64,000 bases of DNA from Rhodothermales bacterium (GTDB lineage: Bacteria > Bacteroidota > Rhodothermia > Rhodothermales > JANQRZ01). The position numbers were made by a program, and so were the translations under genes. A model generated the notes under the pieces. It had not been told where the DNA came from, made no database searches, and saw nothing but the letters and a program-made list of their open reading frames with translations. This document shows positions 5,404 to 44,394 of this stretch, one piece after another. The stretch is taken from NCBI GenBank assembly GCA_965215145.1, contig OZ244038.1, positions 90,257 through 154,256 of the forward strand. The letters are read 5' to 3'. How positions within the stretch are numbered: position 1 is the stretch's first letter; every line of letters begins with the position of its first letter.

Positions 5404-5491
5404 CGGGAGCAGGGCGTTCAGCGCGGGCGACGGGAAAGTAAACGCGCCGCGCGGCGGGAGTGTCCCCGTGGGATCTTCCGTTTTGAAGGGT

Positions 5492-5544
5492 GTAGGGGCG
5501 TATGGCCATACGCCCTTACGGCGTTGAGCCTTACGGCGTTGAGC
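5492..5544. repeat. 28-bp near-perfect palindrome followed by a 15-bp tandem duplication
   Basis: GTAGGGGCGTATGG|CCATACGCCCTTAC (5492-5519, one mismatch), then CTTACGGCGTTGAGC twice (5515-5529, 5530-5544). It lies in the divergent FMO/uvrA intergenic region. Confidence 0.7.
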
Positions 5545-5640
5545 CCGAGCGCAGCGCCCCGTGCCACAGAGGTTTCATACCCCCGCTCGCATCTTCGCTC
5601 ACCCCGCCCGCGTTCGCCGACCGACCCTCCCGACCCCCGG

Positions 5641-8575: not shown

Positions 8576-9595
8576 TCAGGTGTACGAGCGGCGGCCTCGG
8601 CGCCGGGCCAACCCCGCGAGGTCGCGCCGCAGGAGGCTGCCCAACAGGCCGGCGGCTGCACGCAGACGGAGGCGCGGGTGCAGGGGGCCGCCGTAGAGAA
8701 GGGCCTCCGCATATGCCCTCCGAGCCTCGCCGAACCTGCGCTGCTGGAGGCGCTGCCGCCCCGTCTTCGTAAGAGCGCGGTGCCGCTTGAAGCCAGCGGC
8801 GTCGAGGAGGTCGCGTTCGGTGAGGGCGACGACCGGACGGACGGCCGCCGGCAGCGCCCCGAAGTGGTCGAGCACGAGTTGACAGCACCCCTCGACGATC
8901 TCGACAATCCGCTGCTGCGTAACCTGCGACGGGTGCTGGCGCCACCGCGCGAGGGGCTCGGGTACGAACACGAACGGCCCCCGTGTGGCGAGCGTCAGCC
9001 AGGTGGGCAGGTCCACGAGGGGGAGCCCATAGGGCTGCTGGAACCCGTCGATCTCGCGGAGTGCATCCACCCTCACGATCACGGTGGCGGTGACGACGCA
9101 GTTGTGGAGGTAGAGCTGGTTCAGGACGGCCCCGACCGGCTCGTTGCGGTAGTGCACGTTGCTGCAGCGCCCGCCCGAGAGCACGGCGCGGCGGAGATCG
9201 CCTACGTGGTCGTTGAAGCGGAAGGCGTCCGACCATGCGAGTACGCGCCGCGGGTCGGCTTCCATGAGCGGAAGCTGACGCGCCAGCTTCTCGGGCAGCC
9301 ACAGGTCGTCCCCCTCGAGGACCGCCACGAACGCGCCGCGCGCCTCGGCGAGCGCGCGGTTATACGTCTCCTGGAGGCGGTAGACGCCGACGTTGTCCTG
9401 CCGCAGCAGGCGGATGCGGCCGTCCTCGTCGGCCAGGGTCTGGACCACGGCCGCCGTCCCGTCGGTGCTGCCGTCGTCCACGACGAGCATCTCCCAGTCG
9501 GGCCGGGTCTGCGCCTGCACCGAGCGGATGCAGGCGCCGATGTAAGCCTCGTGGTTGTACGTCGGTGTGATGACGGTAACGGCCGGGGCGTCCAT
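8576..9595 (-). CDS. family 2 glycosyltransferase
   Basis: 339 aa from the ATG at 9595 (residue 223 of track ORF 8576-10261). VITPTYNHEAYIGACIRSV, LVVDDGSTDGT, LEGDDLW. Confidence 0.8.
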   Translation of the reverse strand: MDAPAVTVITPTYNHEAYIGACIRSVQAQTRPDWEMLVVDDGSTDGTAAVVQTLADEDGRIRLLRQDNVGVYRLQETYNRALAEARGAFVAVLEGDDLWLPEKLARQLPLMEADPRRVLAWSDAFRFNDHVGDLRRAVLSGGRCSNVHYRNEPVGAVLNQLYLHNCVVTATVIVRVDALREIDGFQQPYGLPLVDLPTWLTLATRGPFVFVPEPLARWRQHPSQVTQQRIVEIVEGCCQLVLDHFGALPAAVRPVVALTERDLLDAAGFKRHRALTKTGRQRLQQRRFGEARRAYAEALLYGGPLHPRLRLRAAAGLLGSLLRRDLAGLARRRGRRSYT

Positions 9596-9914
9596 ATTCG
9601 CGGAGGGCGTTTCTGTCCGGCCGAAGCTGAGGCTACCCGGGTGGAGCGGGGAGGGCCTAGCATGAAGGGTGCTCCGTATGCGCTGCCAATAAACGTCCGC
9701 TTCGCAGTTCGGATCAATACGCCGCCAGGGGTTCGAGGGCGCAGTGCTGTGGCGAAGCCGGAGTGAAGGCCGGCGTGGGGGGTTAAAGCTTCGGGTAAAT
9801 CGTTGTCTACGTCGCCGGTTTGTCCCCCGGCCAGCGGGCGGAGGGGCAACCGCACGGGGGTTCGTCGGTAGGTTCGGTTTTCGCCCGCTCCGCTCCCACA
9901 ACCGGCCGCCCTCG

Positions 9915-11333
9915 GTGACGACGCCACCACCGCCGCTCCGGGTCTTCTTCGTCTCGCACTCGTTCCCGCCCGAGGGCCGGCCGCTCGCCAACGTCGGGGG
10001 GATGCAGCGCGTGGCGACGGAGCTCCACGCCGCGCTCGCGGACACGCCCGGCGTCGCGCTCGACGCGGCGATCCTCCGGAGCACGTGGCGGTGGACGGCC
10101 GTACGCACGCTCCCGTTCCTGGCGGGGCTCCTGATGCGGCTCCCGCAGCGCGCCCGCGCCCACCGCGCCGACGTGGTCGTGTTCTCCTCCATCGTGACGG
10201 CCCTCGTGTGCTGGCCGCTCCGGCGGCGGCTCCGCGCGGCCGGCGTGGCGACGGCCGCCATCGTCCACGGTCTCGACGTGACGACGCCGGCCCCCCTCTA
10301 CCAGTGGTTCGTCCGGCAGGCGTTCCGCTCACTCGACCTCGTGCTGCCGGTCAGCCGCGCGACGGCCGCGGCGTGCGAGGCTCGCGGGCTGCCCCCGGAG
10401 CGCATCCACATCGTCCCGAACGGGGTCTCCCTCGACCGCTTCCTCAGCCCGCAGCGGGCGCTCGCCGTGCAGGCCACGCCGGGCGACGGTGCGCCCGCCC
10501 TCGCCGAGCCGGAGCTGGTGGTCCCGCCCCCCTCGTCGCCCCCCGCCTCCGTGCCGAAGCCCGTTACCCCCTGGGCCGAGGCGTTGAAGACGGAGAAGCT
10601 CGAGGCGCGGCGCCGGCTGGCCGGGCGGTTTGACGCGCCGGGCTTGCTGGAGGCCGAGACGCTCCTGCTGTGCAGCGTCGGCCGGCAGATCCCGCGGAAG
10701 GGGTTCGGCTGGTTCGTCCGCGAGGTGATGCCGCAGCTGCCCGAGAACGTCCACTACCTCCTCGCCGGCGAGGGGCCGACGGCCGAGGCCATCGAGGAGG
10801 CCGCCGCCGCCGTCGGCGTGGCCGGCCGGGTGCGGCGGCTCGGGTGCATCCCCGAGGCCGACCTCGCCACGCTGCTCCAGGCGGCCGACCTCATGGTGGT
10901 CCCGAACCGGCCCGTGCCGGACGACGTGGAGGGGTTCGGAGTCGTGATGCTGGAGGCGGGGCTGTGCGGGACGCCGTCGGTGGCCGCCGCGCTCGACGGC
11001 ATCCGCGACGTGATCGTGGACGGGCGGAACGGGCACCTCGTCCCGTCGGGCGCCGGCACCGCCTTCGCCGCGGCGATCCGGCGCTACGGGGACGACCGCC
11101 GGGCGCTGACGGCGCTGGCGGCGCGCACCCTCCGCTACACCGCCCGGACGTTCAACTGGCGGGCCGTGGCGGGGAGCTACCTGGAGGTGCTGCGGACGCG
11201 CCAGGGGCGGGCGCCGGTCGGCATCGAGCGGGGGGCCGCCCCGCCGCCCGTCGGGCTGCGCCCGGAGGGCCGCCTCGAGCGGGGCCCGGCCCGGCCCACC
11301 CTCGCGCCGACGGCCCCCTCGAACTCGACGTAG
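9915..11333 (+). CDS. GT-B fold glycosyltransferase (GT4-like)
   Basis: RVFFVSHSFPPEGRPLANVGGMQRV at the N-terminus and FGVVMLEAGLCGTPSVAA in the C-terminal half. The start is set at in-frame GTG 9915 to retain the first beta strand; ATG 10002 is the alternative. A Pro/Ser-rich insert and a low-complexity tail are present. Confidence 0.65.
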   Translation: MTTPPPPLRVFFVSHSFPPEGRPLANVGGMQRVATELHAALADTPGVALDAAILRSTWRWTAVRTLPFLAGLLMRLPQRARAHRADVVVFSSIVTALVCWPLRRRLRAAGVATAAIVHGLDVTTPAPLYQWFVRQAFRSLDLVLPVSRATAAACEARGLPPERIHIVPNGVSLDRFLSPQRALAVQATPGDGAPALAEPELVVPPPSSPPASVPKPVTPWAEALKTEKLEARRRLAGRFDAPGLLEAETLLLCSVGRQIPRKGFGWFVREVMPQLPENVHYLLAGEGPTAEAIEEAAAAVGVAGRVRRLGCIPEADLATLLQAADLMVVPNRPVPDDVEGFGVVMLEAGLCGTPSVAAALDGIRDVIVDGRNGHLVPSGAGTAFAAAIRRYGDDRRALTALAARTLRYTARTFNWRAVAGSYLEVLRTRQGRAPVGIERGAAPPPVGLRPEGRLERGPARPTLAPTAPSNST

Positions 11334-11343
11334 GCCCGCGCCC

Positions 11344-12558
11344 ATGCGAGCCCCAACCCCTCGGGGGGACGGCGGAGCCCCGCTCCGCGTCGCCCTCTTC
11401 ACCGGGAACTACAACCACATCCCCGACGGCGTCTCGCGGACGCTGAACCGGCTCGTGGCCTTCCTCGAGCGGCGGGGGGTCCCCGCGCTCGTCTTCGCGC
11501 CGACGGTGGAGGACCCGCCGATGGCGCACGCCGGCACGCTCGTCCCCGTCCCCTCAGTCCCCGCGCCAAAGCGGCCGGAGTACCGGCTCACGATGGGGTT
11601 CCCGCGCGAGGCCCGCGAGCGGCTCGAAGCCTTCGGCCCAACGCTCGTCCACATCGCCACGCCGGACCTACTGGGGTTCCGGGCGCTGCGGTGGGCCGGC
11701 ACGCAGGGCCTCCCGGTCGTGGCTTCCTACCACACCCACTTCACCTCGTACCTCAGGTACTACGGGCTCCAGTGGCTCGAAGGGGTGCTGTGGAGCTACG
11801 GGCGGTGGTTCTACGGGCAGTGCGAGCAGGTCTACGTCCCGAGCCGCTCGATGGCGGCGGTGCTGCGCAGCCACGAGATCGCGGGGGGCCTGCGGATCTG
11901 GGAGCGCGGCGTGGACACCGAGCGGTTCCACCCCCGCCACCGCGACCCCGCGTGGCGCCGCCGCCTCGGCATCTCCGACGACGAGGTCGTGGTGGCCTTC
12001 GTCAGCCGGCTCGTGTGGGAGAAGGGGCTCGACGTGTTCGCCGACGTGGTGGGGGGGCTGCGGGCGCAGGGGCTGCCGGCCCGGACGCTCGTCGTCGGCG
12101 ACGGCCCGGCGCGGGCGGAGCTCGAGGCGCGGCTCGGCGCGGGGGCCGTGTTCACGGGCCACCTCGAAGGCGACGCGCTCGCGCGGGCCTACGCCTCGGC
12201 CGACGTGTTCCTCTTCCCCTCCGACACCGAGACGTTCGGGAACGTGACGCTGGAGGCGATGGCGAGCGGGCTCCCCGCCGTCTGCGCCGACGCCACGGGG
12301 TCGAGCGAGCTCGTCCGGCACGACGTGACGGGCTTCCTCGCGCCGCCGGGCCAGAGCGCGGCCTTCCTGGACTACACCGCCCGGCTCGTCCGCGACGCCG
12401 AGCTCCGCACCCGCCTCGGCGCCCACGCCCTCGCCCGCGCCGAGCGCTTCAGCTGGGACGCCGTGCTGGAGCGCCTCCTCGGCTACTACCGCGAGGTCCT
12501 CGCCGGCCCCGCAGGCGCCCGGACCGAGCCCGTTCCCAGCCCCTCTCCCCTCTCCTGA
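11344..12558 (+). CDS. GT4 glycosyltransferase (SqdX/glycolipid-synthase-like N-terminus)
   Basis: 404 aa. LRVALFTGNYNHIPDGVSRTLNRLVAFLERRG... and FPSDTETFGNVTLEAMASGLPAV (the E-x7-E region). Confidence 0.85.
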   Translation: MRAPTPRGDGGAPLRVALFTGNYNHIPDGVSRTLNRLVAFLERRGVPALVFAPTVEDPPMAHAGTLVPVPSVPAPKRPEYRLTMGFPREARERLEAFGPTLVHIATPDLLGFRALRWAGTQGLPVVASYHTHFTSYLRYYGLQWLEGVLWSYGRWFYGQCEQVYVPSRSMAAVLRSHEIAGGLRIWERGVDTERFHPRHRDPAWRRRLGISDDEVVVAFVSRLVWEKGLDVFADVVGGLRAQGLPARTLVVGDGPARAELEARLGAGAVFTGHLEGDALARAYASADVFLFPSDTETFGNVTLEAMASGLPAVCADATGSSELVRHDVTGFLAPPGQSAAFLDYTARLVRDAELRTRLGAHALARAERFSWDAVLERLLGYYREVLAGPAGARTEPVPSPSPLS

Positions 12559-12571
12559 ATAGACCCGGCCT

Positions 12572-13819
12572 ATGCGTCTCTGCGACCTCACCCACGCCTA
12601 TACCGCGTCGAGCGGCGGCATCCGCACCTACATCGACGCCAAGCGGCAGTACATCCTCGACCGCACCGACGGGGAGCACCTCCTGATCGTCCCCGGCGAG
12701 CAGGACGAGGTCGAGGAGCGGGGGCGGCTGACGACGGTGCGCGTCGCCGGGCCGGTGATCCCCGGCGCGGCGCCGTACCGGCTGCTGCTGCGGATGGACA
12801 AGGTGAAGGCCGCGCTGCGGCGCTACCGCCCGGACCTCGTCGAGCTGACGAGCCTCTACACGTGCCCGTGGGCGGCGTTCTCGTACCGGAAGGACGCCGC
12901 CGAGGCCGGGCACCCCTGCGCCGTCTCGGCCTACTACCTCACCGACCTCCCCACGGCCTACGTCGAGCCCGCGGCGACGCGGCTGGGCGGCGAGGCCGTC
13001 GGGCAGTGGGCCAAGCAGCAGGCCACGCGCTACATGCAGGCGATCTACACCCGCCTCGACCTCGCCTTCACCTCGCACCCGGAGCACGTGGACCTCCTGC
13101 TCGGGCTCGGCGTCGAGGCGCCGGTCTACAACGTCCCGCTCGGCGTCGACCTCGACCTGTTCCACCCCCACCGCCGCAGCGACGACGTGCGGGCACGATT
13201 CGACGCCGGCCCGGACGACCTCGTGCTGCTCTACGCCGGCCGGCTCGACTCCGAGAAGTACGTCCACACGCTCGTGGACGCGCTGGAGCGGCTGCCGGCG
13301 GCGCTCCGCCCCCGCCTCGTGCTGGCCGGTGAGGGGCCGCACCGCGAGGCCCTCGAGGCGCGCGCAGCGGCGCTGGCCGCGTCGGACGAGCGGCGGCTGT
13401 TCGTGCTCCCCTACGTGCAGGACAAGCGGGAGCTCGCGGCGCTGATGGCGTCCGCCGACGTCTACCTCACGGCGGGGCCGCACGAGACGTTCGGGCTCTC
13501 GGTCGTCGAGGGGCAGGCGGCGGGGCTCCCAGTCGTCGGCGTCTACGCAGGCGCGCTGCGGGAGCGGGTGCCGGCGGGGACTGGCCTCCTCGGCCCCGTG
13601 GCTGACGCGGAAGCGATGGCCGCCAACATCGAGCGGGTGGCCGCCGAGCGTGCGGCGATGGGGGCGGCGGCGCGGGCGCACGTCGCAGCGTCGTTCTCGT
13701 GGGAGGCGTCGTTCGAGAAGATCTTCCGGGCTTACGGGCAGGTGATCCCCCGGTCGTCTCTCCCCGCACCGGGCGGAGACGGCGTCCGGCCTGCGCCGAC
13801 GGGCGTCTCTCCCGGCTGA
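12572..13819 (+). CDS. GT4 glycosyltransferase
   Basis: 415 aa. SSGGIRTYI near the N-terminus; PHETFGLSVVEGQAAGLPVVG in the C-terminal Rossmann half. Confidence 0.8.
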   Translation: MRLCDLTHAYTASSGGIRTYIDAKRQYILDRTDGEHLLIVPGEQDEVEERGRLTTVRVAGPVIPGAAPYRLLLRMDKVKAALRRYRPDLVELTSLYTCPWAAFSYRKDAAEAGHPCAVSAYYLTDLPTAYVEPAATRLGGEAVGQWAKQQATRYMQAIYTRLDLAFTSHPEHVDLLLGLGVEAPVYNVPLGVDLDLFHPHRRSDDVRARFDAGPDDLVLLYAGRLDSEKYVHTLVDALERLPAALRPRLVLAGEGPHREALEARAAALAASDERRLFVLPYVQDKRELAALMASADVYLTAGPHETFGLSVVEGQAAGLPVVGVYAGALRERVPAGTGLLGPVADAEAMAANIERVAAERAAMGAAARAHVAASFSWEASFEKIFRAYGQVIPRSSLPAPGGDGVRPAPTGVSPG

Positions 13820-14799
13820 TGGTGAGCGCCGCCCGCGGCAGCCTGGTGGAGGGTTACGTGCTAGCGAGCTATGGCGCGGAGCGCTACCTCCGCCACGCGG
13901 TCGCATCGGTGACCACGCTGCGGCGCTACGACCGCCGCCGGCCCGTGGCGCTCTACTGCCCCCCGGAACACGCCGAGGCGCTGCGACGCCACGGGCTCGA
14001 AGGCCTCTTCGACCGGGTCGAGCCGCTGCCCGAGGCGCACCGCTCGATCGTCGGGTTCAAACACCACCTCGACCGGTTCTTCCCCTTCGACCGCACCCTC
14101 TGGCTCGACGCCGACACCGTGTGGTGCCGCGACCCGGAGGGGCTGTGGGAGCAGCTCCGCCCGTACGCCTTCACCGCGACGGGCCTCCGCCGGGCCGACG
14201 TGTGGTTCGGGGCGTCGAAGGGCCTCGGCGTCGTGGCGGATGTGGCGCTGCGGCGGCGGGCGCGGACGCTGCGGCGGTTCGGGCTCACCGAGCTGCCGCG
14301 CGTGCAGTCCGGGTTGATGGCGGCCTCGGACCGGGCGCTGACGCGGCGGGTAGGCGAGGCGGCGCGGGGCTTCCTCCAGCAGCAGGACCGCACCCACTTC
14401 CGCAGCCGCCTCCGCGAGCCGGGCCGGGCGCTCGAGTCCTGCGAGTGGTCGCTGGCGATGGCGATGAGCGCGCTCCGCTTGCCGGTGCTGCCGTGGCGCC
14501 AGGGGCCGGAGAGCCCGCAGGTGGACTTCTTCGAGGCGGCGACGGACTACGACCCCGACTTCCGCAGCGTCCGCTACCGCTACCTCCGCAGCCGCTTCCT
14601 CCACGAGCTCCAGAGCGTGCCGGACGCCCGCCTCCGACGGCTCCTCGTCCAGGCAGCGCGAGCCGTCCCCGGTGCGGGCACGGCGGCGACGTTCACCCCG
14701 TACCTGCTCCACTTCGGGTGGCTTCGGGAGAAGCGGCCCTTCGAGGACTTCGCAGACCGGACGTGGCAGCGCCTCACCGCGGGCGGAGCGCAGGGCTAA
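13819..14799 (+). CDS. putative GT8-like nucleotide-diphospho-sugar transferase
   Basis: 326 aa from ATG 13819, overlapping the upstream TGA 13817-13819. YVLASYGAERYLRHAVASVTTLRRY... and the DxD segment LWLDADTVWCRDPEGLWE resemble glycogenin-type GT8 proteins. Confidence 0.5.
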   Translation: MVSAARGSLVEGYVLASYGAERYLRHAVASVTTLRRYDRRRPVALYCPPEHAEALRRHGLEGLFDRVEPLPEAHRSIVGFKHHLDRFFPFDRTLWLDADTVWCRDPEGLWEQLRPYAFTATGLRRADVWFGASKGLGVVADVALRRRARTLRRFGLTELPRVQSGLMAASDRALTRRVGEAARGFLQQQDRTHFRSRLREPGRALESCEWSLAMAMSALRLPVLPWRQGPESPQVDFFEAATDYDPDFRSVRYRYLRSRFLHELQSVPDARLRRLLVQAARAVPGAGTAATFTPYLLHFGWLREKRPFEDFADRTWQRLTAGGAQG

Positions 14800-15623
14800 G
14801 CGACCGGCTCGGGCGTGCGGACGCGGCGCGTCAGGACGGCCGTGCCGCGCGGGCTCGGCCGCATCGAGACCTCGAACGGCCCGTGCGCCTCGGCCCAACG
14901 GCGGACCGCCTCGGCCTCGTCGGCGCGGCGGGCGTCGTCGAGGATCACCACGGCGTCGGGGCCGAGGCGGTCGAACAGGAGCGGGCCGGCGGGGTGACGC
15001 GCGAGCGGGTTCGTCTCCAGCGGTGGCCCGTCGATGACCAGCAGGTCGATGCGGTCAGGCAGGTCCATCCCGTCGAGGTCGTACCAGCGGACGCGCCGGC
15101 CCTCGACCTCCTGCTCGCGGAGCGGCGCGTGGAGGACCTCCACCCGGTCCGCCAGCCCGTGCCGCGCCACCCGCCGCCGGGTCTCCTCGGCGAACGCCCC
15201 GTCGTGGTCGAGCGAGACGACCCGCCCACGCCCGACCTCTTCGAGCGCGTAGCCGAGCACGAGCGAGGACGCCCCACTGCCGAGCTCGACGACGACCCCG
15301 GGCTCCCGGTCCCACACCGCCTCGGCGAGCGTGGCGGCGAACTCGGCCGAGGCCGCCCACCGGGTCAGCGGGGGGAGCGGGGCGCGCAGCGGGAGGGCGC
15401 GGTGCAGCCACATCAGCGCCTGCGTGTGGTTGAGCCGCAGGATCTCCTCCTGCTCGGCCACGCGGTAGAGCTGGAGCTGAAGCCCGAGCACGAGCACGAG
15501 CGCGACGCCCACGGCGACGGGCAGGCTCGCCGCACCCCACAGCCACCACGCCCCCCCGCTCGCGACGGCGTACACGAGCGCGAGCGCGATGAGGAGGCGG
15601 GTGTCCTGATGCTTGAACTGCAC
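14796..15623 (-). CDS. class I SAM-dependent methyltransferase with N-terminal membrane anchor
   Basis: 275 aa. Two hydrophobic helices, then VVELGSGASSLVLGYAL (motif I) ... VVSLDHD ... IDLLVIDGP. Confidence 0.75.
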   Translation of the reverse strand: MQFKHQDTRLLIALALVYAVASGGAWWLWGAASLPVAVGVALVLVLGLQLQLYRVAEQEEILRLNHTQALMWLHRALPLRAPLPPLTRWAASAEFAATLAEAVWDREPGVVVELGSGASSLVLGYALEEVGRGRVVSLDHDGAFAEETRRRVARHGLADRVEVLHAPLREQEVEGRRVRWYDLDGMDLPDRIDLLVIDGPPLETNPLARHPAGPLLFDRLGPDAVVILDDARRADEAEAVRRWAEAHGPFEVSMRPSPRGTAVLTRRVRTPEPVA

Positions 15624-15682
15624 GGCGGCGGGAGGCGGAGCCGCGTCAAGGTAAGCGCCGGAACCCGCCCCGATGCCTCCGG

Positions 15683-16501
15683 TTGCCGCCGCAACCTCGC
15701 CCCTCCACTCTGATGCCCTCCTCCCCCACGGTGAGCTGCCTGATGGTCACGGCCGACCGGCCGGCGCTCGCGCGGCGCGCCATCCTCTCGTTCCGGGAGC
15801 AGACGTACCCCCGCAAGGAGCTCGTCGTGCTCGACAACGGGGAGCGGCAGATGGACGATCTCCTGGCGGACCTGCCCGACGCGGAGGTCCGGTACCGTCA
15901 CGTCAGGAAGGCGCCGGGGACGTGGATCGGCGCGCTGAGGAACGAGTCGCTCGGGATGGCGACGGGGGGCCTCGTGGTGCCGCAGTGGGACGACGACGAC
16001 TGGTCGCACCCGGAGCGGCTGGCGCGGCAGGCGGCGGTCCTGCTGGAGGGCTACGCCGCCTGCACGCTGCCGGGCTACCTCGTCCACCTCGACAGCCCGG
16101 ACTACTTCGAGCACCCGTTCGTCGGGCGGCTCCGCGAGGGGACCTGCCTGATGCACCGCCGCGGCGACGCCATCCGCTACCCGAACACCGAGCGCAAGAG
16201 CGACACCGCCTACGTCCGGGCGTGGCGCGAGCGCCGCCACCGCCAGCTCGCGCCCGCCGACGCGCGGCTGTACGTCCGCACCTTCCACGGCGGCAACCTC
16301 TGGGACGAGACCCACATCCTCCGGCGGATGCGGAACACCCCGGCCGACCTCCTCGCCTACGGGTGGCACCGCTACGTCCGCCGCGACGTCCTCGGCCACC
16401 CGCGCTTCCGGCTCGGCCCCGCCGCCCGCGCCTCGTTCGAGCTCTACCTCCGGCACTCCCGCGCCTGCGGCCTCTTCGCCAAGGGCGTTCCCACCGGCTA
16501 G
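15683..16501 (+). CDS. family 2 glycosyltransferase
   Basis: 272 aa. VSCLMVTADRPALARRAILSFREQTYPRKELVVLDNG and WDDDDW. Confidence 0.8.
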   Translation: MPPQPRPSTLMPSSPTVSCLMVTADRPALARRAILSFREQTYPRKELVVLDNGERQMDDLLADLPDAEVRYRHVRKAPGTWIGALRNESLGMATGGLVVPQWDDDDWSHPERLARQAAVLLEGYAACTLPGYLVHLDSPDYFEHPFVGRLREGTCLMHRRGDAIRYPNTERKSDTAYVRAWRERRHRQLAPADARLYVRTFHGGNLWDETHILRRMRNTPADLLAYGWHRYVRRDVLGHPRFRLGPAARASFELYLRHSRACGLFAKGVPTG

Positions 16502-17400
16502 TTCCACGCGAGCCGGCGGAGGCCAGCGGCGACGGCGGCGCTGCGCTCCCGGCCGAGGAGGCGGTCCAGCCACGCCGCCCACGGAAGCCCGAGCAGGATC
16601 AGCTCCCCGATCACGAACGTCGAGAGGATGTTCATCACGAGGAAGATGCCGACGTGGAGCGCGAGCACGGCCAGCACCATCGGGTAGCGGAACGGCCGCC
16701 ACCACATCAGGAACGCGAACAGCTCCGTCAGCAGCCCGAACACGAGGAAGCCCGCCGCCACGGCGTAGTGGTCCATCGCGAGCTGCTGGATCCAGCTCAG
16801 CCCGTAGACGCCGGTGTTCGAGAAGGCGTCCATGCTCTTCTCCCCGATCCACATCCACATGTGCCGCCCGTCGGCCCACAGCAGCCCCGTCCCGACGAAC
16901 TTCGAGAAGGCGGCCGACGTGTAACCGAGCCCGAGGAAGAAGTACGTGTAGCCGAGCACGAACCGGTTGCGCACGCCCTCCTCTGCAAAGAGGACCGCGC
17001 CGAGGGCGAAGCCGAGCAGCGTGACGCCGAGGAGGTGCGAGCCGTGCGGGTCGAACCCCTGCGAGAACCGCGTCACGAACTGGAAGTGGAGCAGCACGAA
17101 CCCCGCGAGGTACGCCCACCGCCACACCCGCAGGAAGCCGAGCGCGAGCAGCCCCGTCGTCAGCACCGCGCTGATGAGCGCCAGCGGCGTCCCGAAGGCG
17201 ACCGAGACGTCGAGGTAATGCGCCATCCCCAGCGGCTCGACCACGTCGCCGAGGCGGGGGATGACGCTCCCCCAGGTCCACGCGAACGAGACGCACGCGC
17301 CGACGATGTAGAGCTCGAACAGCCGGAAGAACAGGGCCTCCCCCGGGGTCTGCTCGCGGTCGGAGTCGAAGAGGTGGTGGGCGAGGGAGAGGCGGGCCAT
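16498..17400 (-). CDS. polytopic membrane protein, tentatively HTTM/SdpB-like
   Basis: 300 aa from ATG 17400 (residue 190 of track ORF 16498-17967; the upstream part is Arg/Pro junk). About 8 hydrophobic helices. LFFRLFELYIV and FVLLHFQFVTRFSQGFDPHGSHLLGV loosely resemble HTTM-domain proteins. The assignment is from pattern memory only. Confidence 0.45.
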   Translation of the reverse strand: MARLSLAHHLFDSDREQTPGEALFFRLFELYIVGACVSFAWTWGSVIPRLGDVVEPLGMAHYLDVSVAFGTPLALISAVLTTGLLALGFLRVWRWAYLAGFVLLHFQFVTRFSQGFDPHGSHLLGVTLLGFALGAVLFAEEGVRNRFVLGYTYFFLGLGYTSAAFSKFVGTGLLWADGRHMWMWIGEKSMDAFSNTGVYGLSWIQQLAMDHYAVAAGFLVFGLLTELFAFLMWWRPFRYPMVLAVLALHVGIFLVMNILSTFVIGELILLGLPWAAWLDRLLGRERSAAVAAGLRRLAWN

Positions 17401-17906
17401 CAGCGTGCGAGGGCGGGGCTGAGCACGGCCGTGTCGGCGTCGAGCACGAGGTAGGGGTAGAGCTCGACGCGGACGCCGCGCTCGTCGTCGAGCTCGCCGA
17501 CGGCGCGGAGGACGAGGAGGCGTCGGTCCGCGAGCCCCGGCCGCAGGACGGCCCGCAGCCCCTCGACCCGCTCGGCGTCCCAGACCTCCGTCTTCGAGAG
17601 GAAGTTCGAGAGGTCGAGCCGGTTGACCCCGTAGGCCCCGACGGCGAACGCCTCGCCGGGCAGCTCCTCCACGGAGACCGGCTCCCACGAGACCAGCCCT
17701 CCGGCGTCGGTCACGTCGCGGACGAGGGCGCGGCTCCACGGCTGGCCGGCCTGCGAAAACATCGGAAAGATGCTGAACGGCCAGAACTCCCCCTCGTGCG
17801 TCGCCACGAGCGCGGCGTAGGCTACGAGTACGCTCAGCAGCACCCGCAGCATCCGGCGCCGAAGCGGCGCCTGTGCCTCGGGGGGCTGTCTCTCCGTGCG
17901 GTCCAT
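17400..17906 (-). CDS. hypothetical membrane-anchored protein
   Basis: Its stop overlaps the start of the downstream membrane-protein gene by 1 nt (ATGA at 17398-17402). One N-terminal helix, LRVLLSVLVAYAALVA. Start could be 17930, 17906 (MDRTERQ) or 17852. GC3-rich. Confidence 0.5.
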   Translation of the reverse strand: MDRTERQPPEAQAPLRRRMLRVLLSVLVAYAALVATHEGEFWPFSIFPMFSQAGQPWSRALVRDVTDAGGLVSWEPVSVEELPGEAFAVGAYGVNRLDLSNFLSKTEVWDAERVEGLRAVLRPGLADRRLLVLRAVGELDDERGVRVELYPYLVLDADTAVLSPALAR

Positions 17907-17950
17907 GGGGAAGGCAATCCGGCCGCCCAAATCTACGCCCTGTCACCGCC

Positions 17951-18940
17951 GTGCGCCCGACCTTCACCCGCCTGGCTCCGCTCCGCGAGCACGTCGGCCG
18001 CGCGCTCGAAACGCGGGGGGGGCAGCGCGCGACGAAGGCGCTCCGGTGGCTCCTGCTCGGCGGCGTCCTCGCGTTCCTCCTCCACCAGCTCGCCGAGGTC
18101 GGCTGGCGGGAGCTGTGGGCGGGGCTACCGCGGACGCCGTGGTTCTACGTGCTCTCGCTGGCGATGTACCTCGTCCTGCCGCTGACGGAGGCCCTCATCT
18201 ACGGGCGGCTGTGGGGCGTGCCGCGCCGCACCCTCGTCGGGCCGAGCCTGCGCAAGCGGGTGCTCAACGCCGACGTCGTCGGGTACTCCGGCGACGTGTA
18301 CCTCTTCGTGTGGGCGAAGCACCGGCTCGGGCTCCCGGACCGGCCGGTGTGGCAGGCGCTGAAGGACAACGCCATCACGTCCTCCGCCGCGTCGCTCTCC
18401 TCGGCGGGGCTGCTGCTCGGCCTGCTCGTCCTCTCCGGCCAAGTGGCCTTTCTCGACCTTCTCGGCGACTGGGACGCGGGGTGGGTCGTGGGCGGCGTCG
18501 CCGTGGCCGCCGCGGCGTTGGGGGTCGTGTTCCGGCAGCGCCTCTTCTCGCTCCCGATGCCGACGGTGGCGGGGCTCCTCGGCGTCCACCTCGCGCGGTT
18601 CACGGTGGTCTACGTGCTCCAGATCCTCCAGTGGTGGGTCGTGCTGCCGGACGCGCCGTTCTCGGTGTGGGCGACGATGCTGGCGGTGATCGTCGTCGCC
18701 AACCGGCTCCCGCTCGTGCCCGCGCGCGACCTCGTCGGGATCGGCGCGGTGCTCGGGATGGCGGACGTGCTGGCGGCCTCGGAGGCGGCCCTCGCGGGGA
18801 TGCTCCTCGCCCGGAGCGCCTTCGACCGGCTGCTCAACGCGGGGCTGTTCGCGGGGACCTCGCTGTGGGAGCGCCGCTCGCCCCCGCTCCCCGTGGCGCC
18901 GCCGGAGGAGATGGCACCGCCGATAGAAGAGGCGGCCTGA
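17951..18940 (+). CDS. flippase-like / lysyl-phosphatidylglycerol-synthase TM-region family membrane protein (tentative)
   Basis: About 8 TM helices. The N-terminal LRWLLLGGVLAFLLHQLAEVGWRELWAGL and the following pattern resemble UPF0104-type proteins. Start uncertain (track GTG/ATG 17873, in-frame GTG 17951). Confidence 0.45.
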   Translation: MRPTFTRLAPLREHVGRALETRGGQRATKALRWLLLGGVLAFLLHQLAEVGWRELWAGLPRTPWFYVLSLAMYLVLPLTEALIYGRLWGVPRRTLVGPSLRKRVLNADVVGYSGDVYLFVWAKHRLGLPDRPVWQALKDNAITSSAASLSSAGLLLGLLVLSGQVAFLDLLGDWDAGWVVGGVAVAAAALGVVFRQRLFSLPMPTVAGLLGVHLARFTVVYVLQILQWWVVLPDAPFSVWATMLAVIVVANRLPLVPARDLVGIGAVLGMADVLAASEAALAGMLLARSAFDRLLNAGLFAGTSLWERRSPPLPVAPPEEMAPPIEEAA

Positions 18941-18961
18941 CGCCGTCCGTCCCCCCGAAGG

Positions 18962-20047
18962 TCAGTCGACCACGAGGAAATCGTAGACGAACGCGCGGCG
19001 GCGGTTGGTCTCGCCGCGCCCGCGGAAGCCGAACACCTCGCCGCCGATGTAGCGCCGCGCCAGCGACTTCCGCAGCCCGCCGAGCTCTTCGAGCGCCGAG
19101 AACTGCATCCGGTCGGCCTCCCGGTTGAGGATCGTGGGGTCGTCGCTCCCCTCGAACCGGACGGCGACCTGCCGGGGCACCGCGACGCCGAGCGCACGCC
19201 GGGTCGAGACGACCTCGATGCTGCTCGGCCGGACGAGCCGGAAGCGCCCGCCCTCGCGGCGCAGCCCGAAGCCGAGCGTCCGCTGTTCGAAGCCGCCGCG
19301 CGGCGAGATCAGCAGGGCCACCTCGGGCTCGTCGCCGTGGTGGACGTACCGGAAGGCGTGGCTGATCAGCTTCGGCGCGAACTCCGTCTGGTACGTGTGG
19401 TCCATGTAGGCCGTGCCGCGAACCCGCTTCTCCTCCCCGTTGATGGTGATGGTGCCGGCCACGCGGGCGTAGGGGATGTGGATAAACAGCCCCATCTCGT
19501 GGTCGCCGAGGCGGAACACCCCGTCGCCCCACGTCATGCCCTCGGCGATGTCGGTGAGCTCGAGGTCCACGACGTACTCGGCGCCGTCCTTGCTCCGGGC
19601 GAAGTAGACGCGGTGCCGGCCGGGCAGCGCGCCCTCGGCGTAGACCTCCGGGTGGATCTGCAGCCGCGCGGGGGTCGAGACGAGGTTCTCGGCCGGGTAC
19701 TGCTTGGCGATCCGGTACGCCTCCCCCCCGAAGTCCGTGACGGCGAACTCGGCGCCGACGGCGGGCGCCATGAAGCTGCCGAAGTTGGCGCGCCGGAGGC
19801 TGAGGAACGCCTCGGTGCCGTCGTCGAAGAGGAAGGTGTAGGACCACGCCTCGTTGAAGGCGCTGCCCCGCGCCCGCTGCGCGCGGAAGTCGGCGGCCGT
19901 GGTGGCGCGGGCCTCGCCCGAGGGGAGCTCGACCGGCTCGTCCCGCGGCGCTAGCGGCCCCGAGCTGTCCAGCGCGCTGGACGGCGCCGCCAGCAGCAGC
20001 GGCAGCAGACCGAGTGCGAGCTTCGTGGTTTTCGGACGTTGCGGCAT
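18962..20047 (-). CDS. secreted hypothetical protein (possibly AttH/CrtC-type lipocalin fold)
   Basis: 361 aa with signal peptide KLALGLLPLLLAAPSSA. GTAYMDHTYQ resembles the G-x-A-W-x-DHEW string of AttH-like proteins. It lies 66 nt downstream of the MMPL gene on the same strand. Confidence 0.5.
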   Translation of the reverse strand: MPQRPKTTKLALGLLPLLLAAPSSALDSSGPLAPRDEPVELPSGEARATTAADFRAQRARGSAFNEAWSYTFLFDDGTEAFLSLRRANFGSFMAPAVGAEFAVTDFGGEAYRIAKQYPAENLVSTPARLQIHPEVYAEGALPGRHRVYFARSKDGAEYVVDLELTDIAEGMTWGDGVFRLGDHEMGLFIHIPYARVAGTITINGEEKRVRGTAYMDHTYQTEFAPKLISHAFRYVHHGDEPEVALLISPRGGFEQRTLGFGLRREGGRFRLVRPSSIEVVSTRRALGVAVPRQVAVRFEGSDDPTILNREADRMQFSALEELGGLRKSLARRYIGGEVFGFRGRGETNRRRAFVYDFLVVD

Positions 20048-20113
20048 GGGGCCAGGCAGGAAGACAACCGAAGGGAGTAGGTCTGGGTTACAAATCTCAC
20101 ACCGTCACGGCCG

Positions 20114-22606
20114 TCACGGCGCTTCGGCCGCGGCGGGCGTCCGGTCTTCGAGCCATTGGAGCAGCGCGGGCAGGAAGACGAGCGCCGCCAGCAGCGTGGC
20201 GCCGATGCCGATCAGCGCGAGCACGCCCATCGAGCGGAGGCCGGGGTGGAAGGAGAAGAGCAGGCCGCTGAACCCGATCATCGTGGTGAGCGCGCCGACG
20301 GTGACGTGCTCGCCCGTCGAGCGCAGCACGCGGAGGACGGAGCCGGGGCCCTCCTCGCGGTAGCGGTGGACGAGGTGGACCCCGCAGTCGTTGCCGATGC
20401 CGAGCACGGCCGGGAGCACGACGAGGTTGTAGAACGTGAGGCTCACCCCCGTCAGTACCATCAGCCCGAGCATCCACAGCACCCCGACGACGAGCGGGAG
20501 CAGCGCCAGCAGCGCCCACCGCACCGAGCGGAAGAAGAGCAGCATCAGCGCCGCGATGAGCGCGAACGTGAGGCCCACCATCAGCGGGCTCTCGGCCAGC
20601 ATCAGCCGCAGCATGTCCGCCGCCACGAGCGAGGTCGAGCCGGCGTAGTAGACCCGCCCGTCCGCCGTCGTGACCGTGCCGACCCGGTCGCTGAAGGCCA
20701 TCGAGAGGCGGCCGTCGGAGAGGCCCACGGCCGGGTAGATCGTGACGAACGTGCCGACCTCGCCGGACTTCGCCGTGAACGGCCGCTTCAGCTCCTCCGG
20801 CACCTCGGCCAGCGCGATGGGGGCCGTGGTGCTCGCGGCGCGGCGGAGGCGGGCGATCTGGCCGGTGGTGTCGGCGCTGAGGAAGGGGTCCGCGGTGAGC
20901 GCGCGGACCTCGGCGATCCGCGCCAGCTTGGCCTCCGCCGCCTCCGGCGTCAGCGGGAACCGGTCCTGCACGCTCTCGACGGACTGGATGAGGGTGTCCT
21001 CGGCCGCCAGCGCCCGCACCGCGGCGACCACCGACTCGGCCTCCTCCGGGCTGCTCACGACGACGTAAGCCGGGTTGCGGCCGGCCCGCCGCCCGAAGGC
21101 CGGGTCGATCTGGCGCTGCTTCGAGCGGTAGGCTTCCAAGGGCGGCTCGAGCCGGTCGAAGTCGTACTCGAACCGCTCCTGCGGGAGCGCGAGCAGCGAG
21201 AGGCCGACGAGGACGAGGCTCGCCGCGACGACGGCGCGAGCAGCGGGGAACGGGCGGCGCCCCGCGGCGGGGGCCTCCGCCACGGCCGCCGCTTCGAGCC
21301 GCAGCAGCCCGAGCCGCTCGGCGAGCACGAGCAGCGCCGGCAGCACCGTCAGCATCGCCACGACGGCGAAGAGGATCCCCGTCCCGCCGACGAGGCCGAA
21401 CTCGCTGAACCCGCGGAAGTCCGCGGCCGTCAGCGCGAACAGCGCGACGGCCGTGGTCGTCGCGCTCACGGCGACGGCCTGCCCCGTCGAGGCGAAGGCC
21501 GTCTCGGTGGCGCCGGGCACGTCGCGGCCCCGACCGCGCTCCTCGACGTAGCGGGCGTAGTAGTGGATGCCGTAGTCGATCCCCAGCCCGAACAGCACCA
21601 GCGCCAGCGTGCTCGTCATCAGGTTCAGGCTGCCGATGGCGAGCTCGGCGAGCCCGAACGTCCACGCCAGGCTCATCAGCAGCGGCAGCCCGATCAGCAG
21701 CGCGGTGAGCGGTAACCGGGCCACCGCCCGGAGGAGGCTCGCGCCGGAGGCGCCGTTGACCTGGAGCGTCTTGTACAGGAAGTAGAGCACCACGAACAGC
21801 AGCACCGCCGTGACCCCGGCCCCGAAGCTGTCCCGGACGTCGTCCGTCACTGACTCGATCTCGACGAGTTGGCGGAGCAGCCGCCCCCCCGCCGTCACCT
21901 CCATCTCCGGGTGGAACCCCGCCGGCTGCATCCCCGCCACGAGCGAGTCCACGCGGCGGTAGGTGGCGCGGACGAACCCCACGTCGGTCTGGGCCCCGGC
22001 CGGGAGGAACCGCAAGGCCAGCACGGTCGAGTCCTCGGAGACGGAGTACTCCGACGGCTGAAGCTCCTCCAGCGACGCCGCGAGGTCGTCGTCCGCCGGC
22101 TCCTCCTCGTCCTCCAGCCCGAGGTCGTCGTCGAGGTCGAGGAAGAACGGGTTGGCCGCGAGGCGGGCGTCCTCGATCTCCGCCTCCAGCGCCTCCACCA
22201 CTCCGTCGAGCTCGCGGTCGGTGGCGAAGTAGAGCGCGTTTCGGGCAAGGAAGGTGGTGTCGCGGCGGTAGTCGTAGCGGGTGAAGAGCGGCGCCCCGTC
22301 CGGCGTCCGCAGCGCCATCATCTGCGGGATGAGCGCCTCGGCGAAGGCGCGGTTCGCCTCGAACGACGGGCTCGCGATCCCCACGTCGAGCAGCGTCTCC
22401 GAGCCGACGGTCTCGCGCAGCCGTTCGAGCGCCCGCACGCTGGGGTAGTCCTCCGGGACCAAGTTGGCGAGGTCGGTGTCGATCTCGAGCCGGAGCGCCA
22501 GCGCGAGCCCGGCTGCGGCGAGCGCGAGGGCCACGACGAGCACGGCGACGGGGCGGCGGACGAGCAGCCCGGCGAGCGGGCGGAGGGCGTCGGAGAGGCG
22601 AGACAC
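20114..22606 (-). CDS. MMPL/RND-superfamily exporter (HpnN-like)
   Basis: 830 aa from GTG 22606 (residue 130 of track ORF 20114-22993). Two 6-helix bundles separated by large loops. GIDYGIHYYARYVEE and GIGNDCGVHLVHRYREE are the paired MMPL signature segments. Confidence 0.8.
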   Translation of the reverse strand: MSRLSDALRPLAGLLVRRPVAVLVVALALAAAGLALALRLEIDTDLANLVPEDYPSVRALERLRETVGSETLLDVGIASPSFEANRAFAEALIPQMMALRTPDGAPLFTRYDYRRDTTFLARNALYFATDRELDGVVEALEAEIEDARLAANPFFLDLDDDLGLEDEEEPADDDLAASLEELQPSEYSVSEDSTVLALRFLPAGAQTDVGFVRATYRRVDSLVAGMQPAGFHPEMEVTAGGRLLRQLVEIESVTDDVRDSFGAGVTAVLLFVVLYFLYKTLQVNGASGASLLRAVARLPLTALLIGLPLLMSLAWTFGLAELAIGSLNLMTSTLALVLFGLGIDYGIHYYARYVEERGRGRDVPGATETAFASTGQAVAVSATTTAVALFALTAADFRGFSEFGLVGGTGILFAVVAMLTVLPALLVLAERLGLLRLEAAAVAEAPAAGRRPFPAARAVVAASLVLVGLSLLALPQERFEYDFDRLEPPLEAYRSKQRQIDPAFGRRAGRNPAYVVVSSPEEAESVVAAVRALAAEDTLIQSVESVQDRFPLTPEAAEAKLARIAEVRALTADPFLSADTTGQIARLRRAASTTAPIALAEVPEELKRPFTAKSGEVGTFVTIYPAVGLSDGRLSMAFSDRVGTVTTADGRVYYAGSTSLVAADMLRLMLAESPLMVGLTFALIAALMLLFFRSVRWALLALLPLVVGVLWMLGLMVLTGVSLTFYNLVVLPAVLGIGNDCGVHLVHRYREEGPGSVLRVLRSTGEHVTVGALTTMIGFSGLLFSFHPGLRSMGVLALIGIGATLLAALVFLPALLQWLEDRTPAAAEAP

Positions 22607-22763: not shown

Positions 22764-23225
22764 ATGCCCGACGCCCCCCCGACTCCGACGGCGCCCGCCC
22801 GCCCGCCCGAAACGCCGACCGTCGAGCCCCCCGTCATCCTCTTCGACGGCGTCTGCAACCTCTGCAACGGCGCCGTCAACTTCGTCATCGACCGCGACCC
22901 GGACGCTCGGTTCAAGCTGGCCGCGCTCCAGTCCGAGCCGGGCCGGGCACTCGCCGCGCGCTGCGGCATCGACGCCGACGCGCTGGACTCCATCGTGCTC
23001 GTCGAGCGGGGACGGTGCTACACCCGCTCGGCGGCGGCGCTCCGCATCGCGCGCGGGCTCGGCGGCGCGTGGCCGCTGCTGGCCGCCCTCGAGGCCGTGC
23101 CGGCCCCGCTGCGGGACCGGATCTACGCCTGGGTCGCCGCCAACCGCTACCGGTGGTTCGGCCGGCGGGAGAGCTGCCGCGTTCCGACGCCGGAGCTGCG
23201 GGGGCGCTTCCTGCTCTCGGCCTGA
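22764..23225 (+). CDS. DCC-family thiol-disulfide oxidoreductase (DUF393)
   Basis: 153 aa. ILFDGVCNLCNGAVNFVIDRD ... IYAWVAANRYRWFG. Confidence 0.8.
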   Translation: MPDAPPTPTAPARPPETPTVEPPVILFDGVCNLCNGAVNFVIDRDPDARFKLAALQSEPGRALAARCGIDADALDSIVLVERGRCYTRSAAALRIARGLGGAWPLLAALEAVPAPLRDRIYAWVAANRYRWFGRRESCRVPTPELRGRFLLSA

Positions 23226-24737: not shown

Positions 24738-25166
24738 ATGATCCATACCTACGACACCATCGAGGTAGGCGATACCCGGACCTACGAACGCCACATCTCC
24801 CAGGAGGACATCCGCCGCTTCTCGGAGATCACGGGCGACGACAACCCCATCCACACCGACCCCGAGTTCGCTGCGAAGACGAAGTACAAGCAGCCCATCG
24901 CACACGGCGCGTTCCTGATCGGCCTCGTCTCGAAGATCCTCGGGCACGACTTCCCCGGCCACGGCGCCATCGCGGTCGCCCTCTCGTCGCGGTTCATCCG
25001 GCCCGTGCCGGTGGACTCCACGCTACGGCTGGAGCTCCAGGTGACGGAGAAGATCGAGAGCCGCGGGCACGTCAAGCTGCGGATCTACATGTACAACGAG
25101 GACAACCGGCTCGTGTGCGGCAACGAGGCCGTGCTCGTCCCCGCCGAGGAGCCCGCCGAGGCGTAG
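24738..25166 (+). CDS. MaoC-like (R)-specific enoyl-CoA hydratase/dehydratase
   Basis: 142 aa. Hot-dog fold signature FSEITGDDNPIHTDPEFA...IAHGAFL. Confidence 0.85.
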   Translation: MIHTYDTIEVGDTRTYERHISQEDIRRFSEITGDDNPIHTDPEFAAKTKYKQPIAHGAFLIGLVSKILGHDFPGHGAIAVALSSRFIRPVPVDSTLRLELQVTEKIESRGHVKLRIYMYNEDNRLVCGNEAVLVPAEEPAEA

Positions 25167-44337: not shown

Positions 44338-44394
44338 GAGGCGTGAGTGCCGATGGGGTAACTTGACGTGCGCTTCTAACCCACCACACGCTTG

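Follow-up and report, generated by a model that had tools for sequence, protein, structure and literature searches.

Positions 8576-22606 of the 64-kb window analysed here (the whole stretch of 64,000 nucleotides from the Rhodothermales contig OZ244038.1) comprise exactly 12 genes, G1 to G12 (Table 1), which we read, with about even confidence, as one form of a modular envelope-lipid cluster that is conserved in related bacteria and would assemble a glycolipid, flip it, modify it in the periplasm and export it through an HAE3-type transporter. Gene families, tight packing and conserved co-localisation are observed directly: the same families recur together around homologues of the membrane protein G8 in about 80 other genomes, an arrangement far from chance, and the invariant core consists of the gene pair G9-G8 plus the MMPL transporter gene (G12 in the window), not of the seven transferases of the locus. 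A first-pass annotation had suggested synthesis, methylation and MMPL-mediated export of a glycolipid, a suggestion that gained from the conserved cluster and its lipid-type families and lost from the composition of the core and from a product that we can only deduce.

Conservation of the cluster in related loci

Scanning one genome of each GTDB species with a degenerate pattern resulted in 239 stretches encoding G8 relatives, from which 79 loci were kept. Together with two metagenome contigs, these 81 loci were analysed by tblastn and by unbiased clustering of open reading frames (ORFs), and percentages of presence refer to the 42 complete loci with at least 8 kb on both sides of G8. Carriers were mostly Rhodothermales, Salinibacter-group genera, and Balneolales, but also members of KSB1, Latescibacterota, and Polyangiaceae. 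In 80 of the 81 loci, G9 directly preceded G8 in the same orientation, and it was present in 100% of the complete ones, which also harbored the MMPL gene (79%, median gap 2.7 kb), a gene for a DUF3047 protein (62%), G10 (57%), and at least one glycosyltransferase gene (76%). Next to the MMPL gene there is typically a G3-G2 pair (up to 63% identity), and the direct neighbour of G8 is G7. Conservation of the gene set had been named as a check by the first-pass annotation; instead of being scattered in relatives, the set forms a conserved though shuffled cluster in Rhodothermales, Balneolales, and three other phyla.

As a unit, the gene set listed there was only partly retained, since its families recur, while G1 and G11 are absent from all 81 loci and G4 has no close counterpart. 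The gene for a DCC1-like protein (G13) and the orphan G14 never recur beside G8 either. Similarly, the proposed limits of the cluster enclose an interval filled by twelve genes, while the conserved neighbourhood continues beyond 22606 to a MaoC gene (24738-25166), which was identified in 25 loci (44-54% identity), including the distant locus L001, and may be an accessory. A gene for an M48 peptidase was found in 21 loci. Additional components of other cluster versions are a second gene pair (u170+u343), a flippase of the Wzx type accompanied by another GT4-like gene, an outer-membrane protein of the Wzi type, or MlaC, the latter adjoining the cluster in a Balneolales variant. In the literature searched (DUF3047, HAE3-glycolipid, Rhodothermus glycolipids), we found no description of the cluster, including its combination with an HTTM-superfamily pair.

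Local duplications were observed as well: the G9-G8 pair is present twice in L042, L088 has two MMPL genes in tandem, and L004 and L005 each contain two paralogues of G10. Many carriers are associated with hypersaline or soda-lake habitats (Salinibacter, Salinivenus, Longimonas, Rhodohalobacter, and metagenome-assembled genomes from Great Salt Lake and soda lakes), which may reflect phylogeny and not ecology.

The gene pair G9-G8

Neither G8 nor G9 revealed any match in Pfam or NCBIfam at E<=10, including the Pfam HTTM model (PF05090) in the case of G8, and the G8 profile found nothing among Protein Data Bank (PDB) sequences at E<=10. Based on an AlphaFold2 (AF2) model (pLDDT 93.5), the top Foldseek match of G8 was human gamma-glutamyl carboxylase (GGCX; 9wfc_A) with a probability of 1.0, a TM-score of 0.47, and an E-value of 0.07, and all other matches remained below a TM-score of 0.2. 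Alignment of the G8 family (A1) with the u343 family, seven members of which match Pfam HTTM (best 1.8e-12), resulted in an hhalign probability of 86% (E 5e-6) over 180 columns, compared with <=0.4% for seven control proteins. In this alignment, the invariant residues H119, K167, and H249 of G8 coincide with the invariant H74, K153, and H230 of u343. Catalysis by GGCX depends on H160 and K218 (bioRxiv 10.1101/2025.02.09.637231), to which the His/Lys residues of G8 may correspond, as we infer from motif context rather than from direct alignment. A library-wide search with the G8 profile returned a tight family of 74 representative clusters at E<=1e-30, followed by remote matches; four of 36 remote matches examined carry PF05090 (best 2.2e-10), and no other family recurs among them. 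The 94 database homologue clusters of G8 are all unnamed and domain-free, and the 365 clusters of G9 homologues are likewise unnamed and lack a Pfam domain. Taken together, G8 is assigned by sequence and model comparison to a divergent, unannotated clade of the HTTM (vitamin-K-dependent carboxylase) superfamily with G9 as its predicted obligate partner. This agrees with the first-pass description of an HTTM-like membrane protein with an overlapping partner, as G9 and G8 share one nucleotide in TGATG.

In G9 (AF2 model, pLDDT 87.7), the segment GEFWPFSIYPMFS is conserved, and an alpha/beta domain is predicted to lie on the periplasmic side. In other bacteria, an HTTM protein and an adjacent small, N-terminally anchored partner (DUF5819) are predicted to rebuild a GGCX-like complex, and the HTTM enzyme MloH carboxylates a small-molecule intermediate (preprint 10.64898/2026.08.19.745780); the architecture of G9 is the same as that of the partner described there. 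The possibility that G9 mimics the lumenal domain of GGCX was considered and not supported (best Foldseek TM-score 0.25).

The second pair, u170+u343, was detected in about 21 related clusters, e.g., L002:12898-14578, L068:7887-9503, and L024:7859-9505. It consists of a protein of about 170 aa with an N-terminal anchor and the motif SEPWPAFVFPGF and a Pfam HTTM-positive protein of about 340-370 aa. Since it occurs alongside G9-G8, two paralogous pairs of the HTTM type coexist in such clusters; in the window, only the divergent pair G9-G8 is present, and u170/u343 were not found. Elsewhere, DCC1 domains occur as fusions with canonical HTTM proteins (same preprint). Despite this, none of the 81 loci carries the DCC1-like G13, whose association with the cluster is speculative.

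Transporter G12 and its putative secreted partner

The MMPL exporter named by the first-pass annotation was clearly identified: G12 matched PF03176 in two stretches with 119 bits (cut-off 20.5), and its hydropathy profile, a single helix followed by a helix cluster and occurring twice, is consistent with 12 transmembrane helices and two periplasmic loops. All NCBIfam models scored below their cut-offs, namely HpnN (TIGR03480, 279/751.85 bits), HAE3 (TIGR00921, 210/351.9), NF052374 (162/1100), and BstA (NF045600, 161/1400). The closest solved structures were those of HpnN (6wu0/5khn, about 1e-27), and orthologues in related loci shared 44-60% identity.

G11, which follows the MMPL gene after a gap of 66 bp, was proposed to encode a secreted lipocalin-like protein. 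It possesses a clear signal peptide, and its resemblance to CrtC/AttH is plausible, with a sub-threshold match to CrtC (PF07143, 20.4 bits vs. cut-off 22.5, E 9e-4) and a match to AttH (2ich, E 0.044). In related loci, a secreted DUF3047 protein is encoded beside MMPL in place of G11. Homology between the two was rejected by hhalign (0.6%), and they are therefore regarded as non-homologous replacements. G11 homologues (30-48% identity) adjoin MMPL genes in four of six metagenome contigs, and the G11-seeded search revealed compact variants composed of MMPL, a G11-like gene, GT4, and GT2 (G7-like) or G10-like genes, one of them with MlaC and OEP. Because of these neighbours, G11 appears to be a genuine alternative to DUF3047.

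Glycosyltransferases and methyltransferase

Family calls were based on curated Pfam thresholds, NCBIfam equivalog cut-offs, and sequence or profile matches in the PDB. As the first-pass annotation had stated, two glycosyltransferases of family 2 (GT2; G1 and G7) and three of family 4 (GT4; G2, G3, and G4, 1e-22 to 1e-33) were identified, all above the curated Pfam thresholds. In the GT4s, this holds for the C-terminal Glycos_transf_1 domain and for an N-terminal GT4-type domain (Glyco_transf_4 in G2 and G3, Glyco_trans_4_4 in G4); Glyco_transf_4 itself fell slightly short in G4 (27.6 vs. 28.5 bits).

G3 is the best-conserved glycosyltransferase of the cluster (orthologues with 55-63% identity), and G2 orthologues (44-48% identity) adjoin G3 and MMPL in about 29 loci. 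G3 revealed sub-threshold NCBIfam matches to GlcNAc-PG synthase (NF053787, 165 bits vs. 480), MGlcDAG synthase, IagA/BgsA, and Dgs, and full-length PDB matches to PimA, making it a candidate for the first, lipid-acceptor step. G4 matched NF053787 (GlcNAc-PG synthase, GpgS) over its full length with 244 bits (cut-off 480), and its PDB matches were Tll1590 and PimB'. Both proteins thus resemble lipid-acceptor GT4s (GpgS, MGlcDAG synthase, PimA/PimB') by sequence comparison, all below the equivalog cut-offs. In related loci, G4 found only cross-matches of about 25% identity that fall on the G3-like gene, and it is a lineage-specific addition.

G7 orthologues (48-61% identity) directly adjoin G8 in 21 loci. 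The best NCBIfam match of G1 was TuaG-like (107 bits, far under the cut-off), and both GT2s showed low-score likeness to teichuronic-acid and colanic-acid GT2s. G1 is specific to this lineage, and since it is confined to it, its membership in the cluster is uncertain.

G5 had no match in Pfam or NCBIfam at E<=10. However, its D97xD99 and a C-terminal HFGW..K motif (H298-F-G...K305) are invariant in 16 homologues, some of which faintly matched Glyco_transf_8 (3/16, 0.025), Nucleotid_trans (GT77, 5/16, 0.052), or Mannosyl_trans3 (3/16, 0.0095). In line with the earlier label of a GT8-like DxD protein, G5 is probably a GT-A glycosyltransferase of an unannotated family; it was found in 17 loci (44-60% identity). 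G6, present in 18 related loci, was confirmed as a membrane-anchored methyltransferase (Methyltransf_24, 1.5e-11), with hydropathy peaks at residues 10-28 and 30-48 for its two N-terminal hydrophobic helices.

Candidate flippase and polysaccharide machinery

G10 had been described as flippase-like (LPG-synthase TM-type). G10 had no match in Pfam or NCBIfam at E<=10, PF03706 and TIGR00374 were not matched by 25 locus-derived homologues at E<=1, and no Pfam domain was detected among 66 database homologues. Comparison of the G10 alignment A8 with E. coli YbhN (PF03706) by hhalign resulted in a probability of 83.6% (E 8e-6), with co-linearity limited to the N-terminal 160 columns, and an independent alignment (A3) reached 24% (E 8e-4), compared with <=0.2% (A8) and <=1.4% (A3) for six control proteins. 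These comparisons lend moderate support to G10 as a candidate flippase of the YbhN/UPF0104 type, in agreement with the earlier description. The glycolipid operon gpgSDF, which has been characterised experimentally, encodes a predicted flippase, GpgF, that is assigned to the same family (COG0392/UPF0104; PMC12713373). G10 was present in 40 of the 81 loci, mostly divergent from G9.

Wzx, Wzy, Wzc/Wzz, Wza, and an initiating phosphoglycosyl transferase were not found among the scanned genes of the window, several smaller ORFs lying outside the profile scan, and the first-pass claim that such machinery is missing holds for these genes. Wzx and Wzi (by tblastn with the proteins of relatives) and DUF3047 were also not found in the window. 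Likewise, unbiased ORF clustering of the 81 loci revealed no recurring family of initiating phosphoglycosyl transferases, Wzy, Wzc/Wzz, Wza, or polysaccharide ABC transporters. However, 14 related loci include a Wzx of the Polysacc_synt/MurJ type within the cluster and nine include Wzi, so that the separation from polysaccharide machinery is not absolute. The view that the locus is no conventional exopolysaccharide or O-antigen cluster is therefore maintained for the scanned genes of the window and has to be qualified for its relatives.

Proposed pathway and alternative explanations

In the pathway that we propose for the envelope-lipid cluster, substrate, acceptor, sugars, order of steps, topology, and chemistry are all deduced. 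At the cytoplasmic face, G2-G3-G4-G5, G7, and perhaps G1 would assemble a short head group of sugars directly on an acceptor lipid of the membrane, a step involving neither a phosphoglycosyl transferase nor a polymerase. The membrane-anchored G6 would O-methylate the product, and the YbhN-like G10 would move it to the periplasmic leaflet. At the periplasmic face, the translationally coupled G9-G8 may act as a split GGCX-like membrane enzyme on the product or a co-substrate, with a chemistry that, by family analogy, would be quinol-dependent. Finally, the HpnN-like G12 and the secreted lipocalin-like G11 would extract the lipid from the inner membrane and pass it toward the outer membrane. The lipid-type GT4s, the YbhN-related G10, the HpnN-like transporter, and the MlaC of relatives support a lipid-linked rather than a polymeric product.

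A narrower proposal, which we consider unlikely, is that G9-G8 represents a split GGCX-like, menaquinol-dependent enzyme acting on a membrane lipid or glycolipid and not on a peptide, and that its base-driven carboxylation or oxygenation in the periplasm licenses HAE3 extraction and outer-membrane insertion. If true, this step would define a novel type of lipid modification as well as a novel route of envelope biogenesis in Rhodothermota/Balneolota and some other diderm phyla.

To our knowledge, it is largely unknown how lipids other than lipopolysaccharide reach the outer membrane in diderms beyond Proteobacteria, and we know of no function for nearly all bacterial HTTM proteins. The locus links both questions, as it ties an HTTM clade and its partner genomically, across phyla, to an exporter, a candidate flippase, and lipid-type glycosyltransferases. 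A clade of bacterial HTTM proteins and lipid export in this lineage thereby both receive a first contextual lead, and the genomic surroundings hint at functions of five unannotated families (G5, G8, G9, G10, and DUF3047). The resulting candidate pathway is concrete and testable, with Roseithermus sacchariphilus, Longimonas halophila, Salinivenus, and Rhodohalobacter halophilus as cultured carriers.

Several observations weigh against the envelope-lipid interpretation. Every equivalog-level model fails, e.g., GpgS with 244/480 bits and HpnN with 279/752 bits, and the assignments of G5 and G10 come from remote similarity only. The G9 model found no fold match in the PDB (Foldseek, best TM-score 0.25), and comparison of G9 with the u170 partner family was not significant (hhalign 2.7%), a motif E-x-W-P...P-x-F being all that is shared. 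Adjoining the conserved His, residues 115-122 of G8 in the window read GFDPHGSH, compared with GEIPHSxN in about 90% of the family; R111, H119, K167, H180, and H249 are kept. Furthermore, the cluster comprises at least seven transcription units with frequent strand switches, its gene order is shuffled between genomes, and the metagenome variants with G11 and MMPL lack G8/G9 within 8 kb. The Wzx and Wzi genes of relatives have to be counted here as well.

An unlikely alternative is that two independent modules lie side by side. In this case, the MMPL transporter, the periplasmic protein encoded with it, and G9-G8, joined or not by G10, would act on a hydrophobic molecule that carries no sugar, e.g., a quinone, an isoprenoid/carotenoid, or a phospholipid species, and the transferases, including the methyltransferase G6, would serve an unrelated glycan. 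The minimal locus L025 of Rhodohalobacter halophilus consists of MMPL and G9-G8 among housekeeping genes, with no glycosyltransferase within 10 kb, and about one quarter of the complete loci likewise lack a recognised glycosyltransferase within this distance. Since there are loci with MMPL and G9-G8 but no glycosyltransferases and G11/MMPL variants without G8/G9, the modules are separable. Highly variable gene order, the binding of quinones by HTTM enzymes, and the cargo of the nearest characterised transporters (hopanoids and sterols, not glycolipids) point in the same direction. On the other hand, glycosyltransferases lie within 10 kb in 76% of the complete loci, many lineages in different phyla show G2/G3 next to the MMPL gene and G7 next to G8, and the G11-seeded loci again pair MMPL with GT4 and GT2 genes. 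In the window itself, convergent overlaps of 4 nt and divergent gaps of 44-89 bp suggest a co-evolved block, which favours the envelope-lipid cluster.

With seven transferases, the locus exceeds the needs of most simple glycolipids, and together with Wzx and Wzi in relatives and the teichuronic-acid/colanic-acid likeness of G1 and G7, this would fit an unconventional surface oligosaccharide, exopolysaccharide, or protein-glycosylation locus. Its polyprenol-linked glycan would be flipped by Wzx (in relatives) or G10 (here) and displayed by means of Wzi-type outer-membrane proteins, the initiating enzyme being encoded elsewhere. We consider this quite unlikely, as none of the polysaccharide families sought recurs in the 81 loci apart from Wzx and Wzi, an HAE3 transporter of the lipid type is the constant partner, the Balneolales variant carries MlaC alongside, and G3 and G4 resemble lipid-acceptor GT4s.

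Rhodothermales and Salinibacter produce carotenoid acyl glycosides, HpnN-type transporters move isoprenoid lipids, and the only family signal of G11, though weak, is the lipocalin domain of CrtC (carotenoid hydratase), but a carotenoid glycoside function, with transferases decorating a salinixanthin-type carotenoid that the CrtC-like G11 and the HpnN-like G12 relocate, is very improbable, as crtB/I/Y and cruF/cruD were neither found in the window nor recurring in related loci, G11 is secreted and replaced by the unrelated DUF3047 in most cluster versions, and G1 matched CruG with only 38 bits (cut-off 600).

Comparison with known systems

The locus would work like several known systems, namely HpnN/BstA export, gpgSDF/hexSDF, and MmpL-linked loci, yet it is a member of none, since all equivalog tests fail and a deacetylase, a polyketide synthase (PKS) core, and hopanoid/sterol genes are missing. 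With the HAE3/RND lipid transporters HpnN and BstA, G12 shares the MMPL domain, its best matches (HpnN, BstA, and the HAE3 model), and a presumed movement of lipids from the inner to the outer membrane. BstA is encoded with BstB/BstC, and G12 with a secreted accessory protein. In contrast, G12 stays far under every equivalog cut-off, no hopanoid or sterol biosynthesis genes are located nearby, and its surroundings contain glycosyltransferase genes and an HTTM-type pair.

The operons gpgSDF (GlcN-phosphatidylglycerol of P. aeruginosa) and hexSDF (C. difficile) combine a membrane-lipid GT4 with a predicted flippase of the UPF0104/YbhN type (PMC12713373), comparable to G4, whose match to the GpgS model spans the full length, and G10, a distant YbhN relative. 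Apart from that, no deacetylase family was found among the cluster proteins scanned, G10 is located on the opposite strand as a separate unit and is undetectable with PF03706, and five more transferases, an RND exporter, and G9-G8 are present here.

Mycobacterial MmpL-linked loci for glycopeptidolipids, lipooligosaccharides, and sulfolipids (PMC6463170) likewise harbor glycosyltransferases and methyltransferases beside an MMPL exporter delivering a glycolipid to the outer layer. However, a core of PKS, nonribosomal peptide synthetase, FadD, and Pap acyltransferase is missing here, as is MmpS, the host is a diderm with a type IX secretion system (T9SS), and in the PDB search G12 was closer to HpnN than to MmpL4/5 structures.

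Finally, GGCX/HTTM enzymes (split pairs of HTTM and DUF5819, MloH) resemble G9-G8 in the probable fold of G8, in the His/Lys positions that align with the HTTM-positive family, and, as in the predicted HTTM-DUF5819 complexes, in a small N-terminally anchored partner. In contrast to them, G8 forms a tight separate family with no PF05090 match, G9 has no detectable similarity to solved folds, and the context consists of lipid export and glycosyltransferases, not of peptide or polyketide substrates.

Gene map and flanking regions

Because of the high G+C content of the window (about 72%), genes were called by third-position GC (GC3) and frame plots, and starts were refined against homologues. According to this analysis, the 12 genes run from the stop codon of G1 (8576) to the GTG start of G12 (22606). 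For G2, GTG at 9915 is the likely start, the alignment of homologues beginning at LRVFFVSHSF.

Table 1. Genes of the cluster (G1 to G12) and its downstream neighbours (G13 to G15).
Gene	Position	Strand	Product	Evidence
G1	8576..9595	-	soluble GT2, 339 aa	PF00535 1.5e-29
G2	9915..11333	+	GT4, opens G2-G3-G4-G5 operon	Glyco_trans_1_4 2.4e-27
G3	11344..12558	+	GT4	Glycos_transf_1 4.7e-33; Glyco_transf_4 1e-31
G4	12572..13819	+	GT4, GpgS-related	NF053787 244 bits, sub-threshold
G5	13819..14799	+	probable cytoplasmic GT-A-type (GT8-like) DxD protein	motifs, faint homologue matches
G6	14796..15623	-	S-adenosylmethionine-dependent methyltransferase, two N-terminal transmembrane helices	Methyltransf_24 1.5e-11
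G7	15683..16501	+	GT2, convergent with G8; alternative ATG start 15713	PF00535 1.5e-10
G8	16498..17400	-	polytopic membrane protein, 300 aa, predicted divergent HTTM superfamily	Foldseek, hhalign
G9	17400..17906	-	G8 partner, 168 aa, N-terminal transmembrane helix	synteny, AF2 model
G10	17951..18940	+	polytopic membrane protein, 329 aa, candidate distant YbhN/UPF0104 (LPG_synth_TM) relative	hhalign
G11	18962..20047	-	secreted, putative CrtC/AttH-type (double lipocalin-like) protein	weak CrtC match, signal peptide
G12	20114..22606	-	MMPL/HAE3-type RND transporter, 830 aa, HpnN-like clade	MMPL 2.8e-34
G13	22764..23225	+	DCC1-like thiol-disulfide oxidoreductase, divergent from MMPL gene	DCC1-like 3.1e-33
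G14	23456-24676	+	406-aa cytoplasmic orphan between DCC1 gene and MaoC; unmatched in Pfam and NCBIfam at E<=10	
G15	24738..25166	+	MaoC-type single hot-dog dehydratase	MaoC_dehydratas 2.3e-24

Genes G2 to G5 are separated by gaps of 10-13 bp or, in the case of G4/G5, overlap in a TGATG stop/start. Convergent gene pairs of the cluster overlap by 4 nt, and divergent intergenic gaps range from 44 to 157 bp with the exception of G1|G2 (319 bp). Comparison of four divergent promoter regions for shared operator-like motifs revealed only GC-rich k-mers. A single copy of TAnnTTTG (Bacteroidota-type -7 box) was found within the 44-bp divergent gap G9|G10 (17928-17935, minus strand), 22-29 nt upstream of the G9 start, which could be due to chance.

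Both flanks show no relation to envelope glycans. Downstream, the DCC1-like gene, the orphan, and MaoC are followed by genes for an M48 peptidase, a RecF-like protein, a CHAT protein, and Mfd. The upstream flank comprises a flavin-containing monooxygenase (3892-5403, minus strand; PDB 8z12, E 8e-108), which occupies the minus strand to about 5300, and a UvrA-like ATPase. A plus-strand ORF of 1315 aa (4612-8559) was considered as a UvrA paralogue with an N-terminal extension, which was ruled out by the monooxygenase on the opposite strand; the ORF is partly spurious, and the UvrA-like gene begins near 5550. It flanks the cluster in 15 Rhodothermales loci.

No tRNA genes or Rfam families were found in the window. 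At 1341-2894 (plus strand), a protein with a T9SS type-A sorting domain is encoded, and the organism therefore has type IX secretion. The CHAT-domain protein (27999-30710, plus strand) consists of 903 aa, and a protein with SBP_bac_3, Lig_chan, and Ion_trans_2 domains (solute-binding, ligand-gated channel, K+-channel pore) encoded at 44380-45510 (plus strand) looks like a prokaryotic glutamate-receptor-type channel.

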